A stretch of DNA of 64,000 bases from Longimicrobiales bacterium. Lineage in GTDB: Bacteria > Gemmatimonadota > Gemmatimonadetes > Longimicrobiales > Gaopeijiaceae. Shown here piece after piece: positions 7,941 through 29,512 of this stretch; position 1 is the first letter of the stretch; the number at the start of each line of letters is the position of its first letter. Position numbers and translations under genes: made by a program. The DNA lies in contig CBDCKR010000002.1 of NCBI GenBank assembly GCA_965218325.1, forward strand, positions 2,339,869 to 2,403,868, given 5' to 3'. Below the pieces are notes generated by a model. The model saw only the letters and a list, made by a program, of their open reading frames with translations. It did not search any database and was not told the DNA's origin.

Positions 7941-8037
7941 CGCGCTCCGCCGGAGGGCGGACCTCCGGGGGATCGAAGGGGGCGGAGCACCCTCGCTAGC
8001 CCCTGCCGGGGACCCGCGAAGCGTGGCCCCAAAGGGT
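7941..8037 (+). repeat. GC-rich REP-like repeat, copy b
   Basis: ..CTCCGCCGGAGGGCGGACCTCCGGGGGATCGAAGGGGGCGGAGCACCCTCGCTAGCCCCTGCCGGGGACCCGCGAAGCGTGGCCCCAAAGGGTA. About 90% identical to 12346..12438. Confidence 0.75.
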
Positions 8038-8058
8038 AAGCGGAACACGGGTGGCGCG

Positions 8059-8156
8059 AATCACGGCAGAATATCGTCTAAAGTCAACCAGGACTGCACG
8101 ATCTGCGTTTCTTGCCGTTCGACCATACCTGAGTCCACCGCACTGGAATGGCGGGG
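8059..8156 (-). repeat. Hairpin repeat family, copy 1
   Basis: AATCACGGCAGAATATCGTCTAAAGTCAACCAGGACTGCACGATCTGCGTTTCTTGCCGT plus ~40 nt of subterminal homology. Arms ACGGCA..GATCG / CGATC..TTGCCGT can pair. Confidence 0.7.
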
Positions 8157-8511
8157 AAATCGCATCAAATCGCGGGAACCCCGGTCGGCTCGAACTGCTA
8201 ACGGTACCTGCCCCGGGCCGCCTCCCTCCGTTTAACGATTCGGGGGGCCGACCACGCGTCCTTCCAGGCCCTTGCCGTCCTCCGAAGTCACGGCATCATA
8301 GGCGATGTGGTCTGCTCCCACAGCCCGCTGCCGGATCTCTTCGGCCAGAATGATCGCGGCCGCCATTCGTGTTGCTATTAGTCCGACCGGCTCGGAGCGA
8401 AAGCGAGTGCCAATTGCCTCCCGTTGGCAACCACTAACTGATGACACGGTGCCTTTCTTCGTGCCTGAGTGAATTCTCCAACACATACACCTCGACATGT
8501 CGCCTATAGGC

Positions 8512-8946
8512 CGCGTAACCGAGGCCTCCCCGTAGCTCACGCCGTCCGCCTCAAGCTCGACCAGCGCCTCCCCCAGCCGGTCGGACTCGGTCGCGGCGGC
8601 GGAGTCGACCATCGCGGCCGCCGTGCCCTCGGTCTCCTGCACGTGCGCCATCATCGAGTAGCGCCTAGCGAAATAGTGGCGCTGCGCGCCACGGATCCGG
8701 CGCCGGGCCGCCTCCATCGCCCACGGACGCCACTCGAGCGACACCGTCATCGCCGCGTCCAGGCAGTAGAGCTCCCGGAGCAGGTTCGCATGCGCCTGCC
8801 CGGGCGGAGAGAGGAGCGAGTACAGGATCACTGGCTCCCCGTCGAGGCGGAGGTGAGAGCGCTCGGCCTCGAGTTCCGAGAGGGCCAGCCGCCAGTTCAT
8901 CCCGCTCCCCGTCGCGCCGTCCCACACCGTGCCCGGGCGGTTGATC
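8512..8946 (-). pseudogene. trbE: trbE/virB4 internal fragment (continues the 5' fragment at 22026..22643)
   Basis: ..INRPGTVWDGATGSGMNWRLALSELEAERSHLRLDGEPVILYSLLSPPGQ..SLEWRPWAMEAARRRIRGAQRHYF.. matches the TrbE/VirB4 N-terminal region. Homology ends at an AT-richer junction at ~8510. Confidence 0.65.
8938..8946. repeat. 9-bp direct repeat CGGTTGATC (left copy) flanking the 13 kb insertion in trbE
   Basis: Identical 9-mer at 22026..22034. Joining the two copies restores a continuous TrbE reading frame (..LLSELINR|PGTVWDG..). Confidence 0.7.
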
Positions 8947-9222
8947 TGCTGTCTGTCCTGTCCCTATGTCATCATAAGTATATGATCTATAGTGAGTTAT
9001 GGATGCAGTAGTTTCTGGTCCGACTCGTTTCTATCGTATGTGATCCCGTATAATTAGCGGGCGATTACACGGGAGCTTACGGTACGTTCGCGGAACCCGT
9101 GACGAGTGGACCGTAGCGGAGGTTCCCGGAGGAGGCGAAGGAGCGAACCTTGCGGGAGGGCGGGTTGTCGATGGCCCCTGTCCTCTCGCATTGCGAACGA
9201 TTCAGATGGTTATCGTCTCAGA

Positions 9223-9450
9223 TCACTCGGCACTGCTACGGCTCGCGGCGATCTGTTCTCGGATCCACGCATCCACCTCGGACTCGATCCAGCCGACGGC
9301 GCGCGCGCCTAGCCGGATCGGTTGGGGAAAGCTCCCGTCGGCCACCCGCACGTAGATCGTGCTCCGCGCCAGCCCGGTGCGGGCCTGCACTCGAGGTAAC
9401 CTCAGGACGCGCGCGGGCGCGTCCATGCCCTGTTCCATTGCTCTCGTCAT
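9223..9450 (-). CDS. alpA: AlpA-family transcriptional regulator / excisionase
   Basis: GGAGG RBS plus ATG at 9450. ..VLRLPRVQARTGLARSTIYVRVADGSFPQPIRLGARAVGWIESEVDAWI.. is the classic AlpA/MerR-like HTH. Confidence 0.8.
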   Translation of the reverse strand: MTRAMEQGMDAPARVLRLPRVQARTGLARSTIYVRVADGSFPQPIRLGARAVGWIESEVDAWIREQIAASRSSAE

Positions 9451-9739
9451 CGGTCTGCCTCCGTTCTGTTCGGTGAAGAATTCCGGGGCGCGTTGCCCCG
9501 GGGGAGGGAACAGGGGCCACATGGGCCCGGCGGCAGGCTTCGATGAACACGGGGACCTGACAGGCCATCGCCAGTCTCGGGGGAGCGGCCAGGACGGAGC
9601 TGACGCACCGGGTTGGGATCTCCCACCGCCTGCAGGCCGAACGTCGACGGCTTCACGCCCGTGCGCTCGAGGGTTGCATCCACTCGCGATTCGAAGTGCC
9701 TCGTCAGCGTCTCCATGGCAGTTGGGGTCGAGACCCGGC

Positions 9740-11640
9740 ATGTGAGGACCCGCTCATGCACTGCGGTGGACTGAAGCCGGCTCAGGAAGTTCCGGCCCAT
9801 ATCGCGCTCCATCCCACGCCTGAGCTCACGGCCCGCGAACCGGCCCCGGAAGCCCGAGGCTCTGGACGCCTCCAGACGCGCCTCCACCTGCTCCATCACG
9901 TGGAGCGCCGTGGCCCGCCCGAACCGCGCCAGCAGCGCGCGCGGCAGCGGGTCCCGGTTCTTGATCGTCCCGGTCGCCGTTCCGTCCGTGATCCGTGCGC
10001 CGGAGGCGTTGGACAGCGTCAGCGTCACCGTTTCCTCGCCCTCGTCGTGATCGTCGTCAAGCACCGCGACCGAGACGCTCTTCGACTGCTCGCCCGCCGC
10101 GAAGCGGAGCGTGCCGCTCGTGGCGGTGTAGTCCGCGCCCGCCGTGGCCGTGCCGTTCGATGTGGCGTAGTCCACCGTCACCGTGCCGCTCGCGGCGCGG
10201 TCCAGCGTGACCGCGAAGGCCAGCGCCGCGTGCGTGTTCTCGTCCACCCGCGCATCGGCGACCGCGATCCCCGCCGGGCCGTTGACCGTCGCCGACACGC
10301 TGCTCTCAAGACCGCGCCCGTCCGAGGTCTCCACCGCCCCGGCGGGCAGCCTGATGGATACAGCTCCGTTGCCGGACGGCTCAACCGTGATCGTCCAGCC
10401 CTGACTGCTGCCCTGCTGCTTGCGCTGCGCATTGCGTACATCGCCACCCGTCACCGCGAACGCCGCGTCCCGCAACGTCTTGAAGCTCAGCCCCGCCACG
10501 TCCTCGCTGAACGTCAGCCCGAACGTGAAGCGCTCCCCGGTGTGCTCACCCGGCACGCCGCTGAAACTCGCCGTCAGCGGATCGGAGGGCGGATCTCCCT
10601 CGCTGGCCGACGGTCCCTTCACCGTCGCCGACGGGGTGTTGGTCAGCGCCCGCGGCGTGTCCTCGCGGGTGCAGACGGCCCCGGTCGTGCCGCAGTCGCG
10701 GCCCCGGGGGAGCGTGATCGTCACGTTGTCCGCGCCCGATGGCTCGACCGTGATCTCCCACAGGTCGTGGCGCCCGTCGACGCGCCGTGCGCCGGTGACC
10801 GCGCCGCCCGTCGTCGTGAAGGACTCGTCGCGCAGCGTCTGGTAGCTGATCCCGATGTCCTCGCTGAAGGCGACCCGGACGCTGAAGGCGCTCTGCCCGT
10901 CGTGCGCCTCGGGCACGCCCTCGAAGCTCGCCGTGAGCGGTTCGGTGTTGCGGATTAAGCCCGTCGCCTGCGTGTCGGGGAGCGTCGCGCCCGTGGCATT
11001 GCTGAAGTTCAGATAGAACGTTTCGCCATTGTCACTCACCGCGTCGTCGATGATCCCGACAGCCACGATCTTCTTGGTCTCGCCCGGCGCGAAGGTGAGC
11101 GTGCCGCTCGTGGCGTCGTAGTCCTGACCTGCCCGTGCTCTCCTTGTCCCCGACGGGCGGTCCGCGGTCGCGTAATCCACCGTCACCGTGCCGGAAGACG
11201 GCGGATCGAGTTCCACCCCGAACGCCATGGGGCTGCGCCCCTCGTACCCGCTGCCGTCTCGCACCCTGAGTACTGAGGGGGCGGTCGAGAGGCCGCAGTC
11301 CACGGCGTTGGCCGACCCCACGGCCGGACAGTCGATCCGCAGGAACGTCTTGCCGGACGCCAACCACTCGTCGCCGACCACCTCAAGGGTGTAGGTGAAC
11401 GCAACGTCGTGGTCACTTTGGTTGTTGTTGTCGCTGGTGGAGGTCGGGTGTTGGACCGTGTACCTGTTGCCCCGGCTCAGCGGGTCGCCGAACCTGGTCT
11501 CCAGGTCACTGAGCGCCCAGGTCGTGTTACGCCTGCCACCCGACACCGTAACCCCGTACCCATCCGGCTGGTCCGGCAACGGCGTGCCGTCGATTGTGAT
11601 GTCGTTCCAGGTGATCTTGACGTTCCCGGCGCGGTAGCGT
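9740..11640 (-). pseudogene. Calx-beta repeat surface protein fragment, truncated at both ends
   Basis: Calx-beta motifs (GETKKIVAVGIIDDAVSDNGETFYLNFSNATGATL; GEQSKSVSVAVLDDDHDEGEETVTLTLSNASGARI). Two ~105-aa internal repeats (PLTASF.GVP..H.G..F.F...FSED..). No signal peptide or credible start. The tail is out of character after ~9740. Confidence 0.65.
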
Positions 11641-11862
11641 TTGGCGAACACGCTGGACCACGAAATCGGCCGCGAGATCGTCCGAATCGAGCAGGCCATC
11701 CGCGCCAAGGATGACCGGGTGCTCAAAGAGTATGGCGACCTGCAGGCCTGCCTCAAGCGGATCGTCGAGCTGAAGGACCTCCACCGATCCTCGACTCCAG
11801 GAACGATGATCCACGGCTTCGCGACATGGCGCTCGAGACGGCTCCCTGGAGGCGGATTTTGA
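11641..11862 (+). pseudogene. Copy B of the conserved ~70-aa C-terminal coding fragment
   Basis: ..DHEIGREIVRIEQAIRAKDDRVLKEYGDLQACLKRIVELKDLHRSSTPGTMIHGFATWRSRRLPGGGF*. About 60% identical to the C-terminus of the 19797..20126 ORF. Confidence 0.55.
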
Positions 11863-12166
11863 ACGCGGATCGGCGAGGGTGGGTGCTGATCGGCGAGTGC
11901 ACATCAGACAACGGGGTGCATGTGCACCGAAACGCCATTTCGATGTGCGCGCCAGCGCTCCCGTATGTGGCTGGCTGTCTTACAGTTGCGGCACGGCCGC
12001 CGGAGCGGCGACGCCGCTCCGGAGCTTTCGGCCGAAGAAGGGAGCGACCCCCCGGATTCGATGCCTCGATCGGCATCGCGGAGGGTTGGCATGTGCACAC
12101 GCATGCCACCCTCCGCCGGGGGTCGCTCCCCTCCAGCAATCCCTAGCGGGAAGGCCATCAAGCGCC
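11863..12166 (+). repeat. Structured repeat copy B (candidate ncRNA or recombination site)
   Basis: Hairpin GTGCACAT(11897)..ATGTGCAC(11927). Outer stem GGGAGCGACCCCCC(12040)/GGGGGTCGCTCCC(12130) encloses GGAGGGTTGGCATGTGCACACGCATGCCACCCTCC. Tail TCCAGCAATCCCTAGCGGGAAGGCC. Confidence 0.55.
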
Positions 12167-12345
12167 GCTGCGAGCGCGGCGTATCAACGAATCCGGCCGC
12201 CAGTCGCGGCTTTTCACCAGCTAGGTGGCTCGGCAAGTCGTCCCAGTGAGGTCGGCGTCGGCGCTCGACCAAGCCCGAAACTGCCCCGAGGTGGTTGAGG
12301 TTGCCGCCGATGCGCGCGACCTGCCGGCCGCGTGCGCGCCATGGC

Positions 12346-12438
12346 CTGCCGGAGCGCGGGCGTCCAGGGGATCGAAGGGGGCGGAGCCACCCTCGCCAGC
12401 CCCTGCCGGGGACCCGCGAAGCGTGGCCCCAAAGGGTA
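12346..12438 (+). repeat. GC-rich REP-like repeat, copy c
   Basis: CCGGAGCGCGGGCGTCCAGGGGATCGAAGGGGGCGGAGCCACCCTCGCCAGCCCCTGCCGGGGACCCGCGAAGCGTGGCCCCAAAGGGTA. Confidence 0.75.
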
Positions 12439-12811
12439 GGCTGGCTTGACCACCTTAGAGTGGCTCAAGCCAGCGCTGACGGACCTCCGTCACGCACCTC
12501 CAGGCACCGCCCGGAACAGCGTCCACCGGGCCGTTGCGGGCAAGCTCCTCCGCCTCGTTGCCACCAGTCTCGCGGGCGGCGAGGGCGAGTCCGTTCGCCT
12601 TGGCGATGGCGGCGACCTCTCCCGCGCCCCGCTTTCGTACCCCTCAGGGACGGGAGTTCGTCGATCTTGGGCGATCCTACGGCCCGGCAAGGCGCTTTGA
12701 AGGGCGAGGAGCAGCGCTATTCGCCCGAAAAGCAACGCAGAACGCAGCGTCCCGGCCCGGATGCATCGCCGGTCGAATGCCGAGAGGGTTTCTTCCACGG
12801 GCTGCCAGGAT

Positions 12812-13303
12812 TCATGACCCATGCACATGCGCGTGGACGGGAGTCGTCACGAAGTCGGGATGTCCGGACCCGATGGTACCATGCATGAGCTTGAAAGTCA
12901 CTCCCGTTTCACCCTCCGCGACGCCGTGTAGATGGCCACCGAACTCTCCCGGCGTATCCTGTTCGAACTCGGCAATCGATTCATCTTCGATATCCACCTC
13001 CAGGTAGAGCTCCTGGCCGAGAGTGATCGCATCGCCGTCATGATCGACAAATCGCACCGCGATGTGGGGCGTCTCCTCACCTGCATCGACCTCCATCTCG
13101 CCGACCCATCTCTGAGTCTCCCCATCGTAGGTGGCGATCACGAGGCCGCCCATGACCAGCTCGACTCCCTCGGGTTCCGCATGTTCCTCTTCGACCTCGG
13201 TCATCGACTCGCTGCAGCCGGCAAGCGTCAGGGCGAGAATGGCCGCCAATGCGGCCAGCGGGCTTCTGTAGCTCTTCGTGTTCATCTGTATTCTCGTGTT
13301 CAT
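12812..13303 (-). CDS. His-rich lipoprotein, possibly metal-binding
   Basis: AAGGAG RBS 7 nt before the ATG at 13303. Lipobox LALTLAGC. C-terminal HLHGVAEGE..KLMHGTIGSGHPDFVTTPVHAHVHGS. Confidence 0.6.
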   Translation of the reverse strand: MNTRIQMNTKSYRSPLAALAAILALTLAGCSESMTEVEEEHAEPEGVELVMGGLVIATYDGETQRWVGEMEVDAGEETPHIAVRFVDHDGDAITLGQELYLEVDIEDESIAEFEQDTPGEFGGHLHGVAEGETGVTFKLMHGTIGSGHPDFVTTPVHAHVHGS

Positions 13304-13313
13304 CTGTATTCTC
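13278..13313. repeat. Perfect 18-bp tandem duplication spanning the lipoprotein start codon
   Basis: GTGTTCATCTGTATTCTC occurs twice (13278-13295, 13296-13313). This duplicates the ATG and gives MNTRIQ-MNTKSY. Confidence 0.9.
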
Positions 13314-13503
13314 CTTCGATAGCTCTTGAGTTTTTCATTGTGTCGGTCAGCACCACGCCCTCGATCTCGCCTTCGTGCTCCGGCTCCTGCGATGATGCGG
13401 GTGCCGATAGCGCGGCGAGTCCGGCGATGGTTATGACGACGCCGGTACGGAGCAAGTCGAGCAGCGTTTTCTTCAATGGATGGCGGATTCGCTTTGGACG
13501 CAC
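13300..13503 (-). CDS. Small hypothetical exported protein
   Basis: ORF with hydrophobic segment VVITIAGLAALSAPASS. Its stop overlaps the start of the downstream lipoprotein gene. Confidence 0.3.
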   Translation of the reverse strand: MRPKRIRHPLKKTLLDLLRTGVVITIAGLAALSAPASSQEPEHEGEIEGVVLTDTMKNSRAIEGEYR

Positions 13504-13587
13504 GGTTCACGGATACGGGCCACCCGCGATAGGGTGACCAGACCGTGAAAGGACGGAAGGAGCGGGGCGCGGGCGCCCCGAGGCGCG

Positions 13588-13950
13588 TCAAGCGGTGGGC
13601 GGAGCCCTGGGAAAGACCGAACCGACCAGGACCCGCGCGATGGGGACTCGGTCAGCGTCTCGGTTCGCCTCGGGTAGTCGGAGGGGAGGCTCGCCTACCT
13701 GGGAAAGCGTGATCCCTTCCGAGACCCTGGCCTTGGAGAGCGATCGCACCACTTGGCAGAAGAAGTGCCCGTGATCGACGGCACAATCTGAATTTTCCGG
13801 CGATTCGATATGAACCGGTGACCCGAATAGCTCGATGTCGAGGATCGCATCGGCGGGACTCAGGCTGGCCGAAACGCCGATCTGAAGCGTGGCGATGCAC
13901 GAAATGCCCACCCGGCGCAGGTCCCATCTGCTCGATTGCCGGAAGAACAA
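13588..13950 (-). CDS. Hypothetical protein with Cys/His cluster
   Basis: ORF ..VHIESPENSDCAVDHGHFFCQVV.., upstream of the His-rich lipoprotein. No family recognised. Confidence 0.3.
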   Translation of the reverse strand: MFFRQSSRWDLRRVGISCIATLQIGVSASLSPADAILDIELFGSPVHIESPENSDCAVDHGHFFCQVVRSLSKARVSEGITLSQVGEPPLRLPEANRDADRVPIARVLVGSVFPRAPPTA

Positions 13951-14053
13951 GTGCCGCCGCCTTCAGAGTTTGAGAAGCGCGAGAACCTACGAAAATTAAA
14001 GCCGCTTTTCCTCGGTCGTCAAGTGCTCGAAGGCCACAAAGCCCGCGCACTCA

Positions 14054-14127
14054 TGGGCCCAGAGAGACTTGAACCCCCGACCGTCGGATTATGAGTCCGC
14101 TGCTCTAACCGCCTGAGCTATGGGCCC
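14054..14127 (-). tRNA. tRNA with CAT anticodon (Met, or Ile2 if lysidine-modified)
   Basis: GGGCCCATAGCTCAGGCGGTTAGAGCAGCGGACTCATAATCCGACGGTCGGGGGTTCAAGTCTCTCTGGGCCCA. The acceptor, D, anticodon (CTCATAA loop) and T arms (GGTTCAAGT) all pair. CCA is not encoded. Confidence 0.9.
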
Positions 14128-14159
14128 ATCTTAACGGTAACCGAAAGGTGAGCCGCCTG

Positions 14160-14795
14160 CTACAGGGTGCCGAACAGACGGTCGCCCCCGTCCCCGAGGC
14201 CTGGAAGGATGTAGCCACGCTTGTTGAGCCTGCGGTCGAGTGCCGCAGCGAATATGGGCACGTCAGGGTGCTCCATAGCCAGGCGGCCGGCTCCCTCGGG
14301 CGCCGCAATCAGACACATCAGTGCGATGTCGTGCGCCCCGCGTGCCTTCAGATCCGCGATAGAGGCACAGGCAGTGCCACCGGTTCCAAGCATCGGATCC
14401 ACCAGCAGAAAGCTGCACCGTTCGGCGTCGGGGGGCAGTTTTCCGTAGTAGCGCACGGGCTGCAGCGTCTCTTCGTTCCGATAGAAGCCCAGATGGCCCA
14501 CCCGCGCTCCCGGAATCAGCCGCAGCACTCCCTCGACCATGCCCAGCCCCGCCCTCAGGATCGGGACGACGACGATCCGGTCTTCGCGGATACGACGCGC
14601 CCGCGTCTCTTCGAGTGGTGTCGAGAAGGCCACCTCTTCGCCCCTCAGTCCTCGCAGGGCCTGGAAGGTCATCAGCAGCGTGATCTCCTCGACGAGTTCC
14701 CGCATCCGCTTCTGCCCGGTGCTCCGGTCCCGCACAAAGGACAGCTTGTGTTCGATGAGCGGATGCTCGACCACCTCGATTGTCAGCTCAGCCAT
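14160..14795 (-). CDS. upp: Uracil phosphoribosyltransferase
   Basis: ..VEHPLIEHKLSFVRD..VVVPILRAGLGM..LLVDPMLGTGGTA..YILPGLGDGGDRLFGT. Confidence 0.9.
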   Translation of the reverse strand: MAELTIEVVEHPLIEHKLSFVRDRSTGQKRMRELVEEITLLMTFQALRGLRGEEVAFSTPLEETRARRIREDRIVVVPILRAGLGMVEGVLRLIPGARVGHLGFYRNEETLQPVRYYGKLPPDAERCSFLLVDPMLGTGGTACASIADLKARGAHDIALMCLIAAPEGAGRLAMEHPDVPIFAAALDRRLNKRGYILPGLGDGGDRLFGTL

Positions 14796-14805
14796 TCCAT
14801 CTCCT

Positions 14806-15528
14806 CTAGCGACGCGACCGGCCGCGGCCCCCTCGCCGGATCAGGGCGCGCGCCTCCGCAAGTTCCGATGTGTGCGCCGGCCTCCAGATGCCGGGCTTCA
14901 GTTTTCCCAGACGGAAGGGGCCGAAGCGCGTGCGTACGAGTTCCACCACCGGATGCCCCACCGCCTTCAGCAGCCGCCGCACCTCCCGCTTTCGGCCTTC
15001 CGCCAGGACCAGCCTCACACCCCAATCCTCTGCGCCGAATCGGACCTTGCGGACCGACCTGGGCCGCGCAAAGCCGTCTTCCAGCTCGATGCCATGCCTC
15101 AGCGACCGCAGCCCCCGGGCTGTTATCTGCCCGGCCACCATCTCGACGCCCCCGCTGGGATGAGCCAACGCGAACCCCATGTCCCCGTCGTTGGTGAGGA
15201 GCAGCAGCCCCGAAGTATCGCGATCGAGTCGACCCACGTAGCGCAGCGATCGTGCCGAGTTGGGGCGGAGGGCGTAGATCGTCTCGCCGCCGTGAGGATC
15301 GCCACGGGTGCAGAGAACTCCACGCGGCTTGTGGAAGACGATCCACCGCCGCGGCGCGACTTCCACCACACGCCCATCCAGCATCACGGTGTCGACGCCC
15401 GGGGTCACGAGCGTCCCCATGACGGTGACTGGCACGCCGTTTACCGCGATCCGGCCATCGCGCATCAGGACTTCGGCCTGACGGCGCGACGCCGCCCCTG
15501 CCCGGGAGATGTACTTCTGGACCCGCAT
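14806..15528 (-). CDS. rluB: Pseudouridine synthase, RsuA/RluB family (S4 domain plus catalytic domain)
   Basis: MRVQKYISRAGAASRRQAEVLMRDGRIAVNG.. (S4 domain) and ..YVGRLDRDTSGLLLLTNDG.. (catalytic Asp motif). Start is the internal ATG at 15528. Confidence 0.85.
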   Translation of the reverse strand: MRVQKYISRAGAASRRQAEVLMRDGRIAVNGVPVTVMGTLVTPGVDTVMLDGRVVEVAPRRWIVFHKPRGVLCTRGDPHGGETIYALRPNSARSLRYVGRLDRDTSGLLLLTNDGDMGFALAHPSGGVEMVAGQITARGLRSLRHGIELEDGFARPRSVRKVRFGAEDWGVRLVLAEGRKREVRRLLKAVGHPVVELVRTRFGPFRLGKLKPGIWRPAHTSELAEARALIRRGGRGRSRR

Positions 15529-15541
15529 GGGGGCGGAGGCC

Positions 15542-16095
15542 CTACCCTTTCGCACTCGCAGGTTCCCCAAGCGGTGTCCCTTCGCGGAGCACGACCGGCA
15601 GCTCCTCGGGACGCGGCAGGTCGTCGAGCGAGGCAAACCCGAAGTGCTCCATGAACCGGCCGGTGGTCCCGTAGAGGACCGGGCGCCCAACCCCGTCCCC
15701 GCGCCCCACCGCCTCGATCAGGCCGCGATCGAGCAGTGTACGGATCACCCCCGTGGAATTGACGCCCCGGATGTACTCCATCTCCACCCGGCTGATCGGC
15801 TGTCTGTAGGCCACGATCGCCAGGGCCTCGAGCGCGGGGCCCGAAAGGCGCGATGTCTTCGGCACCGTATCGAAGCGTTCCAGATAGGGCGCGAACTCCG
15901 GCCGCGTCATGAGCCGTCGGCCACCTCACGCAGTTCGAAGGCTCGGCCAGACCGGTCGTATTCGCCCTGAAGGGCCGCGAGGGCCGCCTCGACCCGGTCC
16001 TCGTCCAGCGTCTCGTCAGCCCGCGCGATGTCGCCGGGCGCGAGCGGCGCGTCACTCGCAAAGAGGATCGCTTCCACGATGCTGGCGTCGTTCAT
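15542..16095 (-). CDS. scpB: Segregation and condensation protein B, interrupted by a frameshift at ~15907-15910
   Basis: N-terminal part MNDASIVEAILFASDAPL..FELREVADGS* (15907..16095). C-terminal part MTRPEFAPYLERF..LEALAIVAYRQPISRVEMEYIRGVNS.. (15542..15910) is in another frame. Confidence 0.75.
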
Positions 16096-16230
16096 CCCGG
16101 CGCCCCTTGATGTTGTTCGGGAGCAGCTGGGCCGCCGTCGGTGCCGGAAGCACCAGCCACGTCGGGATCGCCACCGCCCACCCCTGCGTTCGGCCCGCGA
16201 TAGATCCACAGCGGCGCGAACGGCTCCGTC
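16092..16230 (-). pseudogene. scpA: Possible scpA 3' remnant
   Basis: ..AAVLGFVNSILRARVTAATMRSTEPFAPLWIYRG resembles the ScpA C-terminus. No FEGPLDLL-type N-terminus is found upstream in any frame. Confidence 0.3.
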
Positions 16231-16910
16231 GACCTCATCGTCGCCGCGGTGACGCGGGCGCGCAGGATCGAGTTCACGAAACCCAGGACCGCTGCCGGGG
16301 CGCGCTGATCGGCGCAGGCTCCTAGGAGGCGGATAGATGTCGCAGCGCGTTGCGCACAGGGGCTCGGCGGTATGCAACCGGAAGTCGCGCTTGTTCCTGT
16401 CGCCGTTGAACCGCTGGCCCGGGACCGAGCGGAAGCCCTCGTCCCCCTCTTCGCTACTCCGCTAGATGAAGTGCCGAACCAGCTCATCAGGCGCCGTCCT
16501 CAGACGGTGGTCGTGGAGGCGAAGTGCCGGACGGTCCTGCCGGTGTCTGCCGGGGGGACCGTGCGCAGGTTGGTGTAAGGCGAGGTCAACTCTCTCGTGG
16601 CCAGCGAACCGAGCGACTCGGCCCTTGAGGGGTGCGGGTTCAGTCCGTTTGTTCATGGGGTAATAATAGCAGGGAAGGCGCCAGCAAGCCCGGCTAAGGG
16701 CGAGGGGAGACGTACCGGGCATTCGGAGGGACGGTCTGCCGGTCCTCGCCCCCGGAAGGCTTAGGCCGCGAGGGCAAGATCGGAGTTCGGGAGACCAGTC
16801 GGTTGCGGAACTGGTGGCATGAGGCGTACCGAACGGCTCGAAGGATCCATCCGAAGTCCTCGAACGGCGTCGAAATCAACCGTCCGGTTTCCCGCCTTTC
16901 ACTACTATAT

Positions 16911-17007
16911 TCCGGCCATTTCGGGACGGTTCATTCGGATGTCTTCCAACGGCAAGAGTGGCAGATCGTGCAACCCTGATTGAACTTACGTGATTTTTGC
17001 CGTGATT
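16911..17007 (+). repeat. Hairpin repeat family, copy 2
   Basis: ..ACGGCAAGAGTGGCAGATCGTGCAACCCTGATTGAACTTACGTGATTTTTGCCGTGATT is the reverse complement of copies 1 and 3. It supplies the TTG 'start' of the truncated 16980 ORF. Confidence 0.7.
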
Positions 17008-19205
17008 CATACCGCCCGCAATCTGCCGGGCCGGCATCAGGCTCCGCGGTGGTGACGGTGACGCAGTCGGTGGCCTCGGTGGAGGTGTCGCCGTCCGTGG
17101 ACGAGCTGACCGCGTTGGGTCAGACCGTTCAGCTGACGGCAGAGGCGTTCGACGAGAACGGCTATGCGGTGGCAGGCGCCGAATTCTCGTGGGAGTCCAG
17201 TGATGCTGCGGTGGCAACGGTTGACGCTGGGGGTCTGGTGACGGCGGTCGCCGAAGGGGTGGCAACGATTACGGCGTCCGCCGGGTCGGCATCAGGCTCC
17301 ACGGTAGTGACGGTGATGCAATCGGTGGCCTCGGTGGAGGTGTCGCCCTCTGCACAGACGATTGGGTTGGGCAGTACGCTGCAGCTGACGGCGGAGGTGT
17401 TCGACGAGAACGGGGATGCCGTGGCGGGAGCGGAGTTCTCGTGGGAGTCCAGTGACGCCGCAGTGGCAGCGGTGGACGCCGGGGGTCTGGTGACGGGGGT
17501 CGCCGAAGGAGTGGCCACGATTACGGCGAGCGCGGGCGAGGCGTCAGGCTCGGCGGTGGTGACGGTGATGCAGCCGGTGGCCTCGGTGGAGGTGTCGCCG
17601 TCCGCAGAGACGATTGGGTTGGGCAGTACGCTACAGCTGACGGCGGAGGCGTTCGACGAGAATGGGGAGGCGGTGGCAGGAGCGGAGTTCTCGTGGGAGT
17701 CCAGTGACGCCGCGGTGGCGACGGTGGACGGCTCGGGTCTCGTTACGGCGGTGGGCAACGGGGAAGTGACGATCACGGCTAGTGCGGGAGAGGGCGAAGG
17801 GTCCGCAGTGGTGACGGTGGTCGAGAATCCGGACCGTGCGGCGCTGGTCGCGCTCTACAACGCGACGAACGGGCCGAACTGGACCAACAATGACAACTGG
17901 CTGGCCGACGTGCCGCTGGAGGAGTGGTACGGGGTGGTGACGGGCAGTGACGGGCGTGTTACACGACTCTCTCTGTGGGAGAACAATCTCACCGGCCCGA
18001 TCCCGCCCGAACTCGGCAACCTGACCCTACTGACAGATTTGGAACTGGCGAGCAACGACCTCTCCGGTCCCATTCCGCCCGAACTCGGCAACCTGACGAG
18101 CCTGTGGTGGCTAAACCTCCGCAGTAACGACCTTTCCGGCCCAATCCCGCCGGAGTTGGCCAATCTGTCGAACCCGGGGATGGCGATTCTCTTGCCCGGT
18201 GGCGTTTGCGTTCCCGACGATCTCTTGGCATGGGCGGTTGAGCTACGTGTTTCCGTGTTCCGGTGCAGCTCCGGGGGGCGGCTGTTGCCCAGTGCGCTGA
18301 TACGCGAGGACGGGAACGGCCTGTCGCTCGCGTTGCCGGACGATCTCCGCGAACCGTCGGCGCTGACCGTCTCCGACCCCTCGGTTGTGGCCGCCTCCGT
18401 CTCCGGCGGCTGGCTTGAGCTTGTCCCCCTCGGCCGCGGGTCCGCGGAGGTGGAGGTGGTGCCGTCCGGCGGGGGAGCCCCCGCGAACGCCAGGGTTGTG
18501 GTGCGCGCGGCCGTCGGGACGTTCGGCATCGACATCGTCATGGAACGGCCCGCCCCGGTGACCTACGAAAAGGCCCTGACGGCGGCCGCGGACTGGTGGT
18601 CCTCCGTGCTCGACGGAACGGAGTGGCCCGACCGGCGGCCCACATGCCTCAATGATCGGGCAACGGCGCTGGCGGATGAATTGCTGATCCATGCCCGGAT
18701 CGACCCTGAATCGGCGGGTGGGTGGGCCGACACATGTTTCAGGAGCGACGGGAATCAAGCGGCCCTCGACCCTGGTGGTGGGGTCATTGCAGCGGCCCCG
18801 GGCAATGCCCAGTCACTACTGGCACGGCATGAGATCGGCCACCTTCTCGGACTGGTGTTTTGGGGGCCGGAATCGGGGCTGGCGACGAAGGGGGAAGAAT
18901 ACCTCTACTTCACGGGTCCACAGGCGGTGAAGGCGTTCCGCGAGCGCGGCGGAGATCCCGACCTGACCGGAGTGCCGTTCGATGGAAACGGTCATTGGGT
19001 TAGGGGCGTGGTGGAGGATTTTATGGGCGGAGGGGCGGACGACGGGACGATCTCGGCCGCTGCCCTGGCGGACGCGGGCTACACCGTGGACATGACGAAG
19101 GCAAAGGACCCGCCGTACTGGCCCGACAACGCGCAAGCGGTTGGCGGTCACGCGAACGACGTTGTGCGGGTGGGCAGGCCCGGAGGAGCTGGCCCGCCGC
19201 GATGA
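16980..19205 (+). CDS. Surface protein with Big_2 Ig-like repeats, leucine-rich repeats and a C-terminal HExxH zincin domain; 5'-truncated
   Basis: At least 3.5 Big_2 units (VVTVMQ.VASVEVSP..LQLTAEAFDENG..FSWESSDAAVA..GLVT..EGVATITAS). Plant-type LRRs (N.LSGPIPPELGNLT.L). HEIGHLLG. No signal peptide; the frame opens inside a repeat unit. Confidence 0.75.
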   Translation: MNLRDFCRDSYRPQSAGPASGSAVVTVTQSVASVEVSPSVDELTALGQTVQLTAEAFDENGYAVAGAEFSWESSDAAVATVDAGGLVTAVAEGVATITASAGSASGSTVVTVMQSVASVEVSPSAQTIGLGSTLQLTAEVFDENGDAVAGAEFSWESSDAAVAAVDAGGLVTGVAEGVATITASAGEASGSAVVTVMQPVASVEVSPSAETIGLGSTLQLTAEAFDENGEAVAGAEFSWESSDAAVATVDGSGLVTAVGNGEVTITASAGEGEGSAVVTVVENPDRAALVALYNATNGPNWTNNDNWLADVPLEEWYGVVTGSDGRVTRLSLWENNLTGPIPPELGNLTLLTDLELASNDLSGPIPPELGNLTSLWWLNLRSNDLSGPIPPELANLSNPGMAILLPGGVCVPDDLLAWAVELRVSVFRCSSGGRLLPSALIREDGNGLSLALPDDLREPSALTVSDPSVVAASVSGGWLELVPLGRGSAEVEVVPSGGGAPANARVVVRAAVGTFGIDIVMERPAPVTYEKALTAAADWWSSVLDGTEWPDRRPTCLNDRATALADELLIHARIDPESAGGWADTCFRSDGNQAALDPGGGVIAAAPGNAQSLLARHEIGHLLGLVFWGPESGLATKGEEYLYFTGPQAVKAFRERGGDPDLTGVPFDGNGHWVRGVVEDFMGGGADDGTISAAALADAGYTVDMTKAKDPPYWPDNAQAVGGHANDVVRVGRPGGAGPPR
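17049..17807 (+). repeat. Three tandem 252-255 bp DNA repeats encoding Big_2 domains
   Basis: Unit starts at GT(G/A)GTGACGGTG (17049, 17304, 17556, 17808). High nucleotide identity between units. Confidence 0.85.
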
Positions 19206-19490
19206 ACGTCCCGCTACGGGCCGGGGAGGAACTTGACGCAAGAGCCGAGCGTCCCTTCAAGTCATCGCCGCCGAAGCGACAGGAGATGGCCACACCTCGG
19301 GCAAGGAGCAGGAGATGACGAAAGCCGATCTCGTGAGCAGGTCGCCGGCCGGAAGCCGACAAGTCGTGGCCGACACTGCAACGAAGCGGCCAGCCGTTCC
19401 CCGCAAGGGAACACGGCCCGCGATCGTTCGTCGGGACGCCACCGATCCCTTGCCCGGCGCATCGGCGAACTCTCATCGACGCCTCCCAAA

Positions 19491-19796
19491 GGCGCTTGAC
19501 GGCCTTCCCGCCAGGGATTGCTGGAAGGGAGCGACCCGCGAGCGGAGGGTGGCATGGCCGTGCACATGCCAACCCTCCGCGGTGCCGATCGGGGCATGCC
19601 GATCGGGTGGGTCGCTCCCTCTTATCCCCGAGACCCTCGGGAACGAGCTGCCGCGCAAGCGGCCCGCCCGTAACCGCAATACGGCCAACGACATAAGAAG
19701 GAGCTCGTGCTTGCCGGGAAACGGCCTTCCGGCGCACATGCACCCATTTGTCAGATGTGCGCTCCCCGTACGGCGCGGATCCTCGCCGATCAGCGT
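19491..19796 (-). repeat. Structured repeat copy C (candidate ncRNA or recombination site)
   Basis: The reverse complement aligns along the whole of copy B. Hairpin GCGCACAT/ATGTGCGC (19742-19772). Outer stem at 19527-19539 / 19604-19619 encloses GGAGGGTTGGCATGTGCACGGCCATGCCACCCTCC. Confidence 0.55.
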
Positions 19797-20640
19797 TCAT
19801 GACCACCCTCCGGGGAGGCGGGTCGAGCGCCAGGTGGCGAAGCAATCGATCGTCGCTGGGGAGCGAAGCGTGCGCTGCATCTCCTTCAGCTCGACGATCC
19901 GCTCAAGCCCGGTCTGGAGATCCCCGTACTCGTCGAGCGTGCGGTCATCCCCCTCGAGGATGGCACGCCCGATCCGGGCGATCTCGCGCCTGGCCGCCTG
20001 AACCGAGTAGGACGAGCCGGAGGAGTCGGATGCGCGGGCACGCACCCAGTGCTCGAGGATCGTCCGGGCGCGCCGGAGCTCCCTCACCGTGCGGACGACG
20101 GCGACGCGACCCCGACGGCTCGGCACCGCTTCGTGAGCGCCTTCCAGAGGCTGCCGTGGGCTGCGCCCCAGGAGCGGAGCGGCTTGGCGGTCTCGTATCC
20201 CGGATCGACGAAGACGAAGAGGGCGTGCTCGGCCTCGAGCGCGACCGGCAGGATGCGGCGCTTGATGCGGAGCGCCTTGAGCGATTCAGCGGCTGAGACC
20301 GGGCTCGGGGCCGTCAGCGTGTCCATGCCGGCTACATCGAGGAGCCCGTTTCGTGCAGTGTCAAGCATGGGAAGAGAGGGGATATTCCAAGAGATACAAC
20401 CACGTCCCACAGCCGGACCGGGCTCCGCCAGCGCCCGCTCGAGCTGCTCCCAGAGGGGATGAGGAGAACCTCGATCCCGGCCGGTTGAATTGCGTTCGAT
20501 CCGCGACAGCTCGGTAACCGCGGCACGCCCCGGAGCCTGGCCGAGGATGAACGTGAAGCCACGGCCTGGCTCACGCCTGCCGCTGACTCGGACTCTCGTC
20601 CAACCTGATGCGGGTTAGACGATGCGCGGTGGTTCAAACA
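19797..20640 (-). pseudogene. Longest member of the fragment family: multi-frameshifted gene with a possible XRE-like HTH N-terminus and the conserved C-terminal domain
   Basis: Three overlapping frames: ..VTELSRIERN.. / ..AESLKALRIKRRILPVALEAEHALFVFVDPGYETAKPL.. / ..ARREIARIGRAILEGDDRTLDEYGDLQTGLERIVELKEMQ..FATWRSTRLPGGWS*. Lies directly downstream of int. Confidence 0.4.
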
Positions 20641-20672
20641 GACGCTTCGGCTGCATGGTCGGATCGGAACGA

Positions 20673-21920
20673 TCAGTGATCTGCCGTAGGCTCCTTACTC
20701 AGATACGCAGCCCAATTGTCCATCAGGACGCGCCTGCGCTCGAACAGGTCGGAACGCGCATAGGCAGCTTCCACCTTGTTACGAACCGCATGAGCCAACG
20801 CGGCCTCGGCGACTTCACGCGGTGCGTTGGAACACTCGCCGCACCAGTCCCTGAAGCTCGACCGGAAGCCGTGCGGCACGGCCGCGATACCCAGGTCTCG
20901 AAGCAGCGTGGAGAGTCTGCTGTGGGCAGATGCGCGGCCCTCCGGCGACGGGAAAACGAGACCGCTGCCGCCCCCGAGCGTCCGCGCCTCGCTCAGTATC
21001 TCCACAGCGCGCCCGGACAGCGGCACCCTGTGGGGGCGATGGGCCTTCGTGCGTTCGGCGGGAACCGTCCACTCTCGAGCCTCCAGGTCGATTTCATCCC
21101 AGTGCGCCAAGCGAACCTCTCCCGAGCGGGCCGCCGTCAACACCAGGAACTCGAAGGCGAGTTTCGTGGCCGGGTAAGCGTGCGACTTCCGTACCGTCTC
21201 CATCGCGCCCGTGACCTTCGAGTGATGCAACGCGCGCATGTGCCGGACTACGGCTCGTTGTCGGCCAAGCGCTTGACCGAGCACATCGCTGGCGGGGTTG
21301 TCCGGCCGAAGCCCCATCGCCACCGCCCACTTCATCACCGCCCCGATGCGCTGGCGCACCCGCCGGGCAGTCACCTGCTTGTCGTGCCAGATCGGTGTCA
21401 GCACTGCCAGGATGTCGGCTGTCGTTATCTCCCCAACCGGTCGATGGCCCAGCTGTGGGAACGCATAGACGCGCAGGCTGGAGACCCAGTCCTTTGCATG
21501 CCTGGCGCTGCGCCAGCCCGGCCGCAGCTGTTCCAGAACGCGGGCGGTCGCTTCGGCGAACGTGGGCATGTCCCGGACCTTGTGCCGCTCGGTACGCGGA
21601 TCGCCGCCCGAGCGCGCGATCTTGCGGTTCATGAATGCCTTCTCGCGGGCCTCGGCCAGCGATACCAGCTGGTAGCCCCCGAGCCCCAGCGTGCGGTTTC
21701 GACCCTGGATCCGCAGACGCTGCTCCCATCGGCGCGCGCCGGATCGGTCCACGCGCAGATAGAGGCCGTTCCCATCGCAGTAGTATCCGGGCTTGGCGCT
21801 GCGCACGAAGGCCGCGCTGAGTGCGTTATGCGGTCGCCTGCCTCGGTGTTTGGGCAAATCCAATTCGGGAGTCCCCGTACAAAGTATCGTATGTTGTATA
21901 CGGGAACATAGTGGACACAC
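20673..21920 (-). CDS. int: Tyrosine recombinase, P4-like integrase with N-terminal arm-binding domain
   Basis: ..SAKPGYYCDGNGLYLRVDRSGARRWEQRLRIQGRNRTLGLGGYQLVSLAEAREKA.. (DUF4102-type arm-binding domain). ..LTAARSGEVRLAHW..HGFRSSFRDW..VEAAYARSD. The exact start is uncertain. Confidence 0.9.
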   Translation of the reverse strand: MCPLCSRIQHTILCTGTPELDLPKHRGRRPHNALSAAFVRSAKPGYYCDGNGLYLRVDRSGARRWEQRLRIQGRNRTLGLGGYQLVSLAEAREKAFMNRKIARSGGDPRTERHKVRDMPTFAEATARVLEQLRPGWRSARHAKDWVSSLRVYAFPQLGHRPVGEITTADILAVLTPIWHDKQVTARRVRQRIGAVMKWAVAMGLRPDNPASDVLGQALGRQRAVVRHMRALHHSKVTGAMETVRKSHAYPATKLAFEFLVLTAARSGEVRLAHWDEIDLEAREWTVPAERTKAHRPHRVPLSGRAVEILSEARTLGGGSGLVFPSPEGRASAHSRLSTLLRDLGIAAVPHGFRSSFRDWCGECSNAPREVAEAALAHAVRNKVEAAYARSDLFERRRVLMDNWAAYLSKEPTADH

Positions 21921-22025
21921 AGCGACAGTGCAACCGGGAGTGTCTTACATAACTCACTGTAATAACTATAGTTAAAGAACCTTATCAGACACATATGGAT
22001 TGTATTGGAATCTATATGTAGCAGA

Positions 22026-22643
22026 CGGTTGATCAGCTCGGAGAGGAGCCGGGAAGCCTCGGCGGCCCCGAGCATCTCGATCGGCGTGTGCTCCCCTACG
22101 AGCGCCCGGCCCGCGTCCACCAGAGCCCGGAAGCGGGCAGCGGCCCCCTCGATCTCGGAACCGAGGTAGGTCGGCGCGCTCGCCCTCCTGCGCTTCCACC
22201 ACTGCGTGAGACGGGACGCTCGTCCCGACGCGGGCCCGTCCGCCACCGTCCGTAGCCTGGGATTGTGCGCCCAGACCAGGTAGGCCTCGAGCTGCTGCAC
22301 GCGGCCTGCCAGAAACGCGCGGCGCTTCCGCTGCGAGACCGCTACGATGCCGGAGCCGTCGGCGTCCCCGCCCTCGGGTGCCCTCGGCCGGCGGAGCATA
22401 TAGAAGTAGAGGCGTGTGTCGGCGTCGAGGCCCGAGAGGAGGCGCTGCCAGCGGCCGAGCACGCGGTCGATCTGCTCGGGCGAACGCCCGTCGACCACCG
22501 GCGGGCACGAGCCGGCCTGCGGCGATCAGCTCGCCGGAGCGGGTCAGGCACGTGCGGCCGTCCTCGAGCCAGCCCCAGTAGGGGAGCTCGTCGGCCAGCG
22601 AACCGGCCGCCTCGTGGTCCTGGAGCTCCGCGGAGATCCTCAC
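22026..22643 (-). pseudogene. trbE: trbE/virB4 5' fragment (frameshift near 22500, then interrupted by the 13 kb element)
   Basis: GTG at 22643 overlaps the trbD stop (GTGA). ..LADELPYWGWLEDGRTCLTRSGELIAAG.., then in another frame ..VDGRSPEQIDRVLGRWQRLLSGLDADTRLYFYMLRR..EASRLLSELINR. Confidence 0.65.
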
Positions 22644-22942
22644 TGCCCGCTCCGGATCACGAGATGCCAGGGCACCTCGGCCCACTTGCCCGGGTCGAAG
22701 CGCGCCGGGTAGCGCGTCCCGGCCCGGAGCACCGCGAGCATGTCAGGGTCCCTCCGGCCGGCCAGCCAACCGGCCGCGTAGCCCACAGCGAAGACCACGC
22801 CGCCCGTCACGAGCGAGTTCATCGCGTTCCACATCGCGAGCCCGAGCGTCGCGACGAGCAGGAACCCCCTACGCTCCACGCCCAGGATCGTGAGCGGTCG
22901 GTTGAGGGCCGGATAGCCGGCCCAGCGCCTCAGACCCCTCAT
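22640..22942 (-). CDS. trbD: Conjugal transfer protein TrbD (VirB3-like)
   Basis: MRGLRRWAGYPALNRPLTILGVERRGFLLVATLGLAMWN..DPDMLAVL. The start overlaps the trbC stop. Confidence 0.75.
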   Translation of the reverse strand: MRGLRRWAGYPALNRPLTILGVERRGFLLVATLGLAMWNAMNSLVTGGVVFAVGYAAGWLAGRRDPDMLAVLRAGTRYPARFDPGKWAEVPWHLVIRSGQ

Positions 22943-23235
22943 CAGAAGAGCCAGGCCAGGAAGTTCGCCGCGCCCATCGCCATCCCCAGCCCGAAGATGA
23001 TCCCGGCCAGCGTCCGCTTGCTCCCGCCCTCGCCGAACGCGAACATCAGCCCGCCTACCACGATCGCGATCAGAGACAGCCCCCGAGCGATCGGACCCGT
23101 GAACTGCACCTGCAGCTCGTTCACCGCCTCCACCCACGGGCTCGTCCCCTGCGCCCAGAACAGCCCGGGGGACAGCAACCACAGCGTTAGCGTGGTCCAG
23201 GCCGCCGCTCGTACCGTCCTTAACAAAGGTTGCAT
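22942..23235 (-). CDS. trbC: Conjugal transfer pilin TrbC (VirB2-like)
   Basis: Signal-like N-terminus. ..VNELQVQFTGPIARGLSLIAIVVGGLMFAFGEGGSKRTLAGIIFGLGMAMGAANFLAWLF. Confidence 0.75.
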   Translation of the reverse strand: MQPLLRTVRAAAWTTLTLWLLSPGLFWAQGTSPWVEAVNELQVQFTGPIARGLSLIAIVVGGLMFAFGEGGSKRTLAGIIFGLGMAMGAANFLAWLF

Positions 23236-23440
23236 CGTCTTCGAATCTTGGAGGTGACCGAGGTCCTGGGCTTACCGCAAACGGCTTGCCTTATTTCACG
23301 GCGGCGTGATACTAGGACCGAGACTTCGGAGGTCGGCCAGCTTTCCGGAGCGATAATCTGCCGCCGATTTGGCCGCTAAAGGGTTGAGCCTGCCGTGGAC
23401 AAGGAGATCCCGGCGGCCACCAGTGTGAGCATCATCGTAC

Positions 23441-29442: not shown

Positions 29443-29474
29443 AGCAGGTCACCGGGCAATTGGGCTTTGGCTTC

Positions 29475-29504: not shown

Positions 29505-29512
29505 CTCGTTCA

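Follow-up and report, generated by a model that had tools for sequence, protein, structure and literature searches.

In Firmicutes, integrative and mobilizable elements (IMEs) integrate at fixed sites in conserved genes, including conjugation genes, that integrative conjugative elements (ICEs) carry, with traG, maff2 and snf2 of Tn5252-related ICEs as targets (PMC5704250, Guedon et al., 2017; PMC5357655, Coluzzi et al., 2017), and it has been hypothesised that excision of the IME restores the interrupted ICE gene (PMC5704250). Helper-embedded phage-inducible chromosomal islands (HE-PICIs) are int and alpA elements embedded in, and co-oriented with, genes of their helper prophages (PMC10111431). 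For tycheposons, capture of chromosomal flanks by imprecise excision has been proposed (bioRxiv 10.1101/2020.12.28.424599), and gene capture by site-specific accretion is attributed to Bellanger et al. (2011) where that work is cited in PMC5704250. Here, a 64-kb stretch of a Longimicrobiales genome (Gemmatimonadota; assembly GCA_965218325.1, contig CBDCKR010000002.1), referred to as the window, is analysed; its closest database relatives are Longimicrobiales metagenome-assembled genomes (MAGs). The interval 8947-22025 (13 kb) of this window is very probably the integrated copy of an integrative element that entered the trbE gene of an ICE and that carries a captured block of Longimicrobiales chromosome. 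Coordinates are positions in the window, and database relatives are labelled L for loci and P for proteins.

Like the Firmicute IMEs, this is a small integrase element at a fixed position in an ICE conjugation gene, recurrent across genomes; its precise excision would restore the gene, and its relatives carry mobilisation accessory genes. It differs from them in that a P4-like tyrosine integrase stands in place of their serine recombinases, the target is virB4/trbE (trbB in the related locus L008), the host phylum is Gemmatimonadota, and the window copy has no mobilisation gene and sits in a degraded ICE. As in the HE-PICIs, an integrase and AlpA element lies inside, and co-oriented with, an essential gene of a possible helper mobile element, with an attachment (att) identity block centred on a 7-bp crossover and repeated motifs in both attP arms, whereas the candidate helper is conjugative rather than a prophage, the element lacks a primase and a replication zone, and AlpA is found at the end opposite the integrase. 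The integrase architecture (Arm-DNA-bind_3, Phage_int_M and a catalytic domain) and the presence of an AlpA-family protein are shared with the P4/CP4-57-type islands, but these classically enter the 3' end of a tRNA or tmRNA gene, while the window element targets a protein-coding gene and holds its tRNA as internal cargo. As in tycheposon or accretion capture, core-type genes have been turned into the cargo of a mobile integrase element and have then spread and eroded; unlike in those cases, the block lies mid-element, 3.9-5.8 kb from either end, and no internal att remnant was found. The window element joins two processes that are already known, nested insertion and gene capture, in a phylum that has been little studied; its recombinase is a P4-like tyrosine integrase and its target virB4. 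No description of elements of this kind in Longimicrobiales was found in the literature searched.

The interval is bounded by two copies of the 9-bp sequence CGGTTGATC (Table 1). This sequence occurs four times in the window against 0.74 expected, a count reached in none of 100 shuffles, and its real significance lies in its placement, as both copies stand exactly where homology to uninterrupted trbE breaks. On the minus strand, the TrbE/VirB4 frame ends at 22035 with ...EASRLLSELINR and resumes from 8937 as PGTVWDGATGSG..., and the intact homologue P0243 reads ...EASRLLSELINRPGTVWDGATGSGMNW..., which is the two window halves abutted without gain or loss of any residue. In the related locus L010 (NCBI MAG CBDCNQ01), joining both trbE parts results in a single open reading frame (ORF) of 814 amino acids, and a protein search with this joined ORF returned many uninterrupted VirB4/TrbE proteins of 810-818 residues. 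One of them, P0241, is 96% identical to the joined ORF over 100% of its length and collinear across the junction. The gene for P0241 is located in L094, in the intact cluster AlpA-TrbC-VirB3-VirB4-CagX-TrbI-...-TrbL-VirB8-311aa-TraG-TrbB, a complete type IV secretion cluster. The DNA of this empty site is CTCTCCGAACTGATCAACCGTCCGGGCATG, with the core present once, and the identity block common to attL and attR (repeats of 9-14 bp) corresponds to the single copy in the empty attB of L094. TrbE profile models were tried as a test of continuity and rejected, as their NCBIfam and PDB matches begin only at residue 281-325, past the junction at residue 205; the intact homologues were used instead.

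The interrupted trbE recurs in at least seven further independent assemblies: both junctions are present in L001/L097, L010, L098, L099 and L100, and at least the integrase junction in trbE is present in L095, L096 and L103. The identical trbE codon position is used in the window and in L001, L010, L095, L096, L098, L099, L100 and L103, which is compatible with one ancestral insertion or with repeated targeting, two histories that this comparison does not separate. A first-pass annotation, made from the window sequence, had described a trbE split by a 13-kb int/alpA element, a reading frame that rejoins once the interval is removed, and the same 9 bp at both junctions. The split is upheld by the empty site, which that annotation had suggested looking for in relatives, and by the independent assemblies, the frame by its collinearity with P0241 and P0243, and the repeat can now be refined to an integrase core that extends to 11-14 bp in sister copies.

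The interior of the element holds the second layer of this locus, a block of genes collinear with a conserved chromosomal region. In seven Longimicrobiales chromosomal loci, the native order is (pyrR-pyrB-pyrC-)rpsT-M50 protease-scpA-scpB-rluB-upp-tRNA(CAT)-orfX-TonB-dependent receptor-orfY-(sortilin/BNR protein); L089 and L091-L093 show the full order from pyrR to the sortilin gene, and L009, L011 and L013 share its core. Homology of the window to this locus begins at 16230, so that it takes in the final 46 codons of scpA, and extends to 12821, and neither native neighbour is present. The tRNA(CAT), upp, pseudouridine synthase gene, frameshifted scpB and scpA stub named in the first-pass annotation are therefore all there, and the block is larger than it listed, reaching down to 12821 with orfX, a TonB-receptor stub and orfY. 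After correction of its frame, ScpB is 95% identical to an intact 186-residue ScpB in native context. The scpA stub gave no Pfam hit and a weak protein match (E = 0.005), and its identity was settled by DNA alignment to L089. The roughly 2.2 kb of the TonB-receptor gene that is lost in the window is kept in L001, L002, L010, L099 and L103. Comparison of GC content, proposed earlier as a way to tell the block from its flanks, shows no contrast (0.651 against 0.647).

The tRNA(CAT) gene has its native genes on both sides. Its acceptor stem contains the pairs C4:G69 and C5:G68, and its T-loop reads TTCAAGT; in these features we take it to be closer to the lysidine-modified tRNA-Ile2 than to elongator tRNA-Met. 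The element copies of this tRNA differ from the chromosomal copies by one T-stem base (G-C to G-U).

The block behaves as mobile, apparently redundant, multi-copy cargo. The exact Upp protein of the window is encoded on 12-13 contigs, and in the ten contexts inspected there was no rpsT, M50 or scpA gene upstream and no sortilin-like gene downstream; all ten lie among integrases, trb genes, insertion sequences, restriction/defence genes or mobilisation genes. The block copies are 96-99.6% identical to one another and end at a series of different points on the scpA side (Table 1). Such a pattern of truncations among near-identical copies would be left if one capture had been followed by spread, by recombination of different element lineages with each other, and by erosion, and the scpB pseudogene agrees with this history. 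In L106 and L002, the block has moved together with the element family to further insertion sites. The decay of scpB, the loss of rluB and upp in L002, and the presence of up to four block-bearing contigs in one sample argue for redundancy.

Three origins had been offered for the block, namely capture of a chromosomal segment, rearrangement through inverted repeats, and element-borne paralogues. Capture is supported as the best fit, because the block is collinear with a conserved Longimicrobiales locus, has its breakpoints in scpA and just after orfY, and travels with the element family. On this reading, an earlier ancestor took up at least 5.6 kb of the conserved locus, from inside scpA via scpB, rluB, upp, tRNA(CAT), orfX and the TonB receptor to orfY, after which the block has moved and recombined with elements, eroding mainly from the scpA side. 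Simple imprecise excision matches poorly because of the distance of the block from either att end. The block may have been acquired by illegitimate recombination, by recombination at dispersed repeats, or by the accretion of two elements on either side of the locus with a later internal deletion; these are tentatively the likeliest routes.

The strongest competitor to capture holds that the block at 12821-16230 is the native locus of this genome, placed between the trbE halves by inversions or double crossovers through inverted repeats. An inverted repeat of about 500 nt (11671-12174 / 19483-19988; repeats I1-I3) does bracket the block, L098 has the block and L002 the AlpA/Calx-beta segment in inverted orientation, and one upp locus is found in the L010 genome among the matches listed. 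However, the same block is present at 98-99.6% identity in elements at other sites (L106, L002) and beside a different integrase lineage (L101, L104, L105), native neighbours accompany none of the ten identical Upp contexts and are both missing here, the breakpoints fall within scpA and after orfY, and an inversion between internal repeats cannot import DNA. This reading is accordingly quite unlikely. Rearrangement through inverted repeats stands as a secondary process, as seen in the 500-nt repeat and the L098 inversion, but not as the explanation of how the block entered. Element-borne paralogy likewise describes the outcome, with identical Upp on 12-13 contigs and no native context among the ten inspected, and is not a rival to capture.

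The manner in which the element entered trbE can be read from its ends, which are AT-rich (GC 0.42 at 8947-9060 and 0.41 at 21850-22025, against 0.647 for the window). Each end carries one copy of AGTGAGTTAT (8991-9000 on the plus strand and 21949-21958 on the minus strand, thus inverted), one copy of TATACGGGA, also in inverted orientation, and one copy of ACATACGATA in direct orientation. The first-pass annotation had noted AT-rich ends with inverted motifs and had placed a P4-like integrase just inside one end and AlpA just inside the other; both observations hold, the latter by Pfam domains, and the direct motif is an addition. The integrase-proximal arm is kept in L001-L004, L008 and L095-L106 although the flanks differ, and the AlpA-proximal arm is kept in L001, L004, L006, L010 and L098-L100. 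On the minus strand, the AlpA end finishes with ...GGACAGACAGCA followed by GATCAACCG, and the integrase end starts with GATCAACCG followed by TCTGCTACATATAG. Fusing the ends rebuilds an attP that reads AGCAGA-TCAACCG-TCTGCT, in which a 7-bp spacer separates two 6-bp half-sites that are perfect inverted copies of each other, a layout that would be expected of a tyrosine-recombinase attP core; a 7-bp crossover with enforced identity is a general rule (PMC10111431). In sister copies, the bases TC still follow the left repeat, giving an identity block of 11 bp (GATCAACCGTC), which is 14 bp in L098, so that the 9-bp length in the window reflects a later T-to-C change.

The integrase gene is apparently intact, with matches to Arm-DNA-bind_3 (PF13356, E = 3.5e-17), Phage_int_M (PF22022, E = 5e-28) and Phage_integrase (PF00589, E = 2e-13). 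The NCBIfam model PRK09692 gives a weak match of 159 bits against a model cut-off of 434 bits. Candidate catalytic residues read from the sequence are R265 (ARSGE), H349-x-x-R352 (HGFRSSF) and Y387 (VEAAYARS), an assignment that we make by motif and by the usual pattern of the family. The integrase clusters P0001 and P0002 comprise 17 and 137 sequences, respectively.

Relatives of this integrase occupy four or five distinct insertion sites, two of them in conjugation ATPase genes, and the targets of the element family comprise trbE, trbB, an intergenic site and other genes. Its conserved ends are found on differing flanks in different genomes (L002/L003, L004/L005, L008, L106). In L106, the integrase end is 97% identical to that of the window and lies in unrelated DNA upstream of a molybdopterin-enzyme gene, and the ten bases before TCTGCTAC are again TGATCAACCG, despite the site being outside trbE. 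L004/L005 hold a compact 6.3-kb relative with different cargo, bounded by the 11-bp repeat TGATCCGTCTC, whose integrase is 83% identical to that of the window in protein and about 87% in DNA. L008 carries a related element (9850-11206; integrase 87% identical in DNA) within a trbB gene of the same ICE family, directly after the codons for LNTGHGGSLI.

From the dyad with its 7-bp spacer, the same core at L106, the intact integrase and the lack of a transposase, we conclude that the 9-bp repeat is most probably the att core of the P4-like tyrosine integrase, not a target-site duplication, and that integration would be site-specific with a preferred core. With a chemistry like that of the known family, the integrase would have recombined an attP consisting of the inverted core sites AGCAGA/TCTGCT, the crossover TCAACCG and the AT-rich arms with a matching sequence (...GAGCTGATCAACCGTCCGGG...) in trbE/virB4 of a resident ICE with a type T mating-pair formation (MPF-T) secretion system. 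The crossover would have left one copy of the shared core per junction, with a length of 9 bp in the window and of 11-14 bp in its sister copies. The small AlpA at the far end is probably a regulator or excision factor, and excision is predicted to yield a circle junction ...GACAGCAGATCAACCGTCTGCTAC... and a repaired trbE ...GAGCTGATCAACCGCCCGGG.... Judged from these sequence features, this mechanism of integration appears well supported.

It is very improbable, by comparison, that the repeat is the target-site duplication of a DDE transposase and the interval a transposon: 9 bp is a common duplication length, and insertion sequences of the IS630, IS3 and IS110 families lie nearby, but domain search and comparison of the ends found no transposase and no terminal inverted repeats in 8947-22025, the same 10 bp flank the independent L106 insertion, the identity block reaches 11-14 bp in sister copies, and joining the ends yields a core of dyad symmetry around a 7-bp spacer. 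An assembly chimera, or trbE pieces from different copies, either of which the first-pass annotation had considered fatal to its reading, is scarcely credible and can be excluded because, even though the region is repeat-rich and several related contigs come from low-coverage long-read assemblies, the same split architecture recurs in independent assemblies of different samples (L100, 98.7% identical to the window across the 13.5 kb of 9760-23242; L001, L010, L099) and the joined pieces match one intact protein gaplessly.

The host ICE, the third layer, is dead in the window. Two trbE lesions beyond those noted earlier are present, a frameshift near 22500 and a loss past about 8520, where trbE homology ends after codon ~345 (the L100 alignment extends to 8523) and neither the remainder of trbE nor the type IV secretion genes follow. 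On the other side, homology to related ICEs ends at 23242, just upstream of trbC, again by alignment to L100. The ICE remnant around the insertion thus amounts to about 1.2 kb and 0.4 kb, amid insertion-sequence fragments, dispersed repeats and other integrase-element remnants. Because of this degradation, a role of the element as reversible interrupter is moot for the window copy, while it is conceivable for L010, L099 and L100, which have the secretion genes downstream.

The element is kin to the ICE family that it occupies, as its AlpA gene and both arms of the inverted repeat are homologues of ICE sequences. The AlpA gene corresponds to the C-terminal half of the 163-residue AlpA that precedes trbC in the intact ICE family; its region shows 75-77% nucleotide identity to the ICE AlpA genes of L094-L096, with only the C-terminal AlpA domain in frame. 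A 172-residue AlpA from the long ORF at 9223-9741 was considered and rejected, since the alignment places only the C-terminal 74 residues in frame with the 163-residue ICE-type protein. Arm 1 is 94% identical to L094 17963-18449 (tblastn, 98% over 51 residues), and arm 2 has 73% nucleotide identity to L094 17701-18460 (tblastn, residues 129-309, 41-59% identity). Overall, the element is a mosaic with clear kinship to its host ICE family. Both arms hold a strong hairpin, GCGGAGGGT(T)GGCATG...CATGCCACCCTCCGC (12061-12116 and 19542-19597), inherited from upstream of the ICE traG, which could be a terminator or a candidate origin of transfer (oriT).

Measured against what defines an IME, the window copy has its own integrase/AlpA module and no secretion-system genes inside 8947-22025, and it does not carry a recognised relaxase or relaxosome accessory gene or oriT. 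NikA/MobC-like genes and a relaxase fragment are carried by L098, L103 and L106. Because of the ICE-homologous AlpA gene and fragments and the NikA/MobC genes of sister copies, the lineage is best seen as a mobilisable, ICE-embedded element.

Several observations weigh against the reading of the interval as an integrated, mobile element with a captured block. The donor lineage is unsampled, the closest native locus, L089, having 83% DNA identity, and the block borders at 16230 and 12821 carry no att-like core, insertion-sequence end or repeat. At the core position of L002/L003, inside a membrane-protein gene, the divergent sequence GAACTCCCG is found, which makes a stringent site choice less certain; in the 21-kb locus of L002, no far end of the element could be located. 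The activity of the element, that is its excision, is one that we infer from sequence. No relaxase, MobC, NikA or TraG match was found in the window, and the oriT is only a candidate. Finally, a check for second copies of upp, suggested earlier, found in the L010 genome, among the matches listed, only the element-borne copy. Native Longimicrobiales Upp sequences all contain the search patterns used in the L010 scan, so that a second copy should be detectable, though the completeness of the MAG is uncertain. This is a weak sign that the block may be the only copy in the L010 genome, which would fit relocation rather than duplication.

Table 1. Features of the trbE insertion, its cargo and the adjoining ICE remnant, with the end points of block copies on the scpA side.
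Feature	Position	Strand	Basis, relatives or remarks
Left att core (CGGTTGATC)	8938-8946	.	Repeat search, empty-site comparison
Right att core (CGGTTGATC)	22026-22034	.	Repeat search, empty-site comparison
AlpA-proximal att arm	8947-9114	.	AT-rich; outermost TCTGCT (+) / AGCAGA (-) is the other core-type half-site
Integrase-proximal att arm	21921-22025	.	AT-rich, GC 0.37; motifs AGTGAGTTAT, ACATACGATA, TATACGGGA; outermost TCTGCT is one core-type half-site
P4-like tyrosine integrase, apparently intact	20673-21920	-	Pfam domains; 97% identical to P0001
AlpA-domain gene, 74 aa	9223-9450	-	PF05930, E = 4e-20
trbE/virB4 5' part, codons 1 to ~205	22035-22643	-	Extra frameshift near 22500; matches L010 TrbE-N in two frames
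trbE/virB4 continuation, ~140 codons	8520-8937	-	Matches L010 TrbE-C at 96.5% aa identity, over no more than 144 aa
trbD (VirB3-like)	22640-22942	-	
trbC (VirB2 pilin)	22942-23235	-	Pfam TrbC, E = 1e-15
Captured chromosomal block	12821-16230	-	Synteny with native loci L009, L011, L013, L089, L091-L093
scpA stub, last ~45 codons	16096-16230	-	DNA alignment to L089
scpB pseudogene	15542-16095	-	Two frames via ~7-nt deletion near 15915-15925
rluB	14806-15528	-	
upp	14160-14795	-	
tRNA(CAT)	14053-14128	-	tRNA and Rfam searches
orfX	13591-13962	-	
TonB-receptor 5' stub	13351-13647	-	~2.2 kb deleted between 13295 and 13350
orfY	12821-13342	-	Block edge is the orfY stop
scpA-side limit of block: window, L100	16230		Longest version
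scpA-side limit of block: L001, L010, L099, L103, L106	15547		Joined directly to 3' flank of integrase gene at 20559
scpA-side limit of block: L098	15222		Block inverted relative to element ends
scpA-side limit of block: L102	15202		
scpA-side limit of block: L101, L104, L105	15056		Beside integrase only 52% identical
scpA-side limit of block: L002	14216		Only upp stub and tRNA left
Arm 1	11669-12174	+	Last 51 codons of 311-aa ICE gene and region upstream of traG; inverted relative to arm 2
Arm 2	19483-20347	-	Frameshifted fragment of 311-aa ICE gene between virB8 and traG, with downstream hairpin region
Calx-beta surface-protein gene, cargo	9447-11670	-	Pfam Calx-beta, E = 7e-35; start codon uncertain
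Big_2/LRR surface-protein gene, cargo	16980-19205	+	Pfam; internal 252-nt tandem repeats (D1/D2); also in L100
Interior stretch, ~650 bp	16231-16883		Matched in L100 only
Dispersed repeat A	16884-17007	.	Other copies 8047-8159, 32651-32731, 38083-38183
REP-like dispersed repeat, ~95 nt	12348-12446	.	Other copies 5053-5101, 7945-8041

The remaining cargo includes two surface-protein genes. That with Calx-beta domains is 3'-truncated by a deletion of about 1.6 kb at 9760-9766; compared with L099 and L100, where its version encodes 1073 residues, the gene is without its 3' 1.3 kb. A tRNA-Thr(cgt) of 95 nt called by ARAGORN within this ORF (10082-10176, plus strand) was rejected as almost certainly a false positive, as it has no Rfam tRNA match.

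Two dispersed repeats recur in and around the element. Repeat A, of 80-120 nt with the internal inverted ends ACGGCAAG...CTTGCCGT, has no Rfam match and may be a miniature inverted-repeat transposable element or of the repetitive extragenic palindromic (REP) type. It is often found at breakpoints (the truncated trbE, an integrase fragment, a truncated IS110 gene), and also in the L089 chromosome (2118-2242) and in L095 (11506-11632). The IS110-family transposase gene (37391-38152, plus strand) is without its C-terminal domain and ends at a repeat A copy. The REP-like repeat is present in many related elements, just downstream of the integrase gene or near orfY, and two of its copies, at 5053-5101 and 7945-7988, form an inverted pair that encloses the genes for an IS630-type transposase (5264-6229) and an outer-membrane beta-barrel protein (6689-7708).

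The region is a graveyard of this integrase element family. Fragments of the 3' end of the same integrase family are found at 32511-32645, adjoining a repeat A copy, and at 41972-42012 (73-79% DNA identity), and 5017-5150 and 7835-8041 match parts of an L004-type element. A 194-nt inverted repeat (231-424 / 35990-36183, 97% identical), formed by the 5' ends of two IS3-family copies (orfA, HTH_Tnp_1), brackets 35.5 kb including the whole trbE/element region, and an inversion or composite structure is possible. Further out, 25529-32391 is lower in GC (~0.60) and encodes TCAD9/APH kinase-like, AAA_21/SMC-like ATPase, ThiF-family and DUF6527 proteins, which looks like a conflict or defence island. 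A S-adenosylmethionine (SAM) riboswitch (51476-51595, plus strand, 69 bits) lies about 700 nt upstream of a gene for a pyridoxal-phosphate enzyme of Cys/Met metabolism (52283-53902).

The locus presents three nested layers of mobile DNA in Gemmatimonadota, a core-gene block in an integrase element in a conjugative element, and the nesting is cleanly resolved, with support from an empty site, from an att core that could be defined and from intermediates at successive stages of decay. To our knowledge, almost no mobile genetics has been described in this phylum. The case indicates that housekeeping-type genes and a tRNA beside an integrase need not mark a tRNA integration site and can be cargo, and for annotation, that element-borne copies should not be counted as core genes of the organism. 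A more far-reaching proposal, which we hold as tentative and rather unlikely, is that this is a helper-embedded mobilisable element with the ELINRP-coding stretch of the ICE VirB4 as preferred attB, which gates conjugation reversibly and spreads a chromosomal module, sometimes as the sole tRNA and upp copies. If so, excision would rebuild trbE and the element would then ride the restored pore, while the module of tRNA(CAT), TonB receptor, upp and rluB would be spread among the members of the population. Certain hosts, of which the L010 genome may be one, might have no tRNA and upp copies of this kind other than those on the element, making the element hard to lose. If virB4 is targeted on purpose, the helper-embedding idea, known from phage satellites and Firmicute IMEs, would also cover tyrosine-integrase elements of MPF-T conjugative elements.

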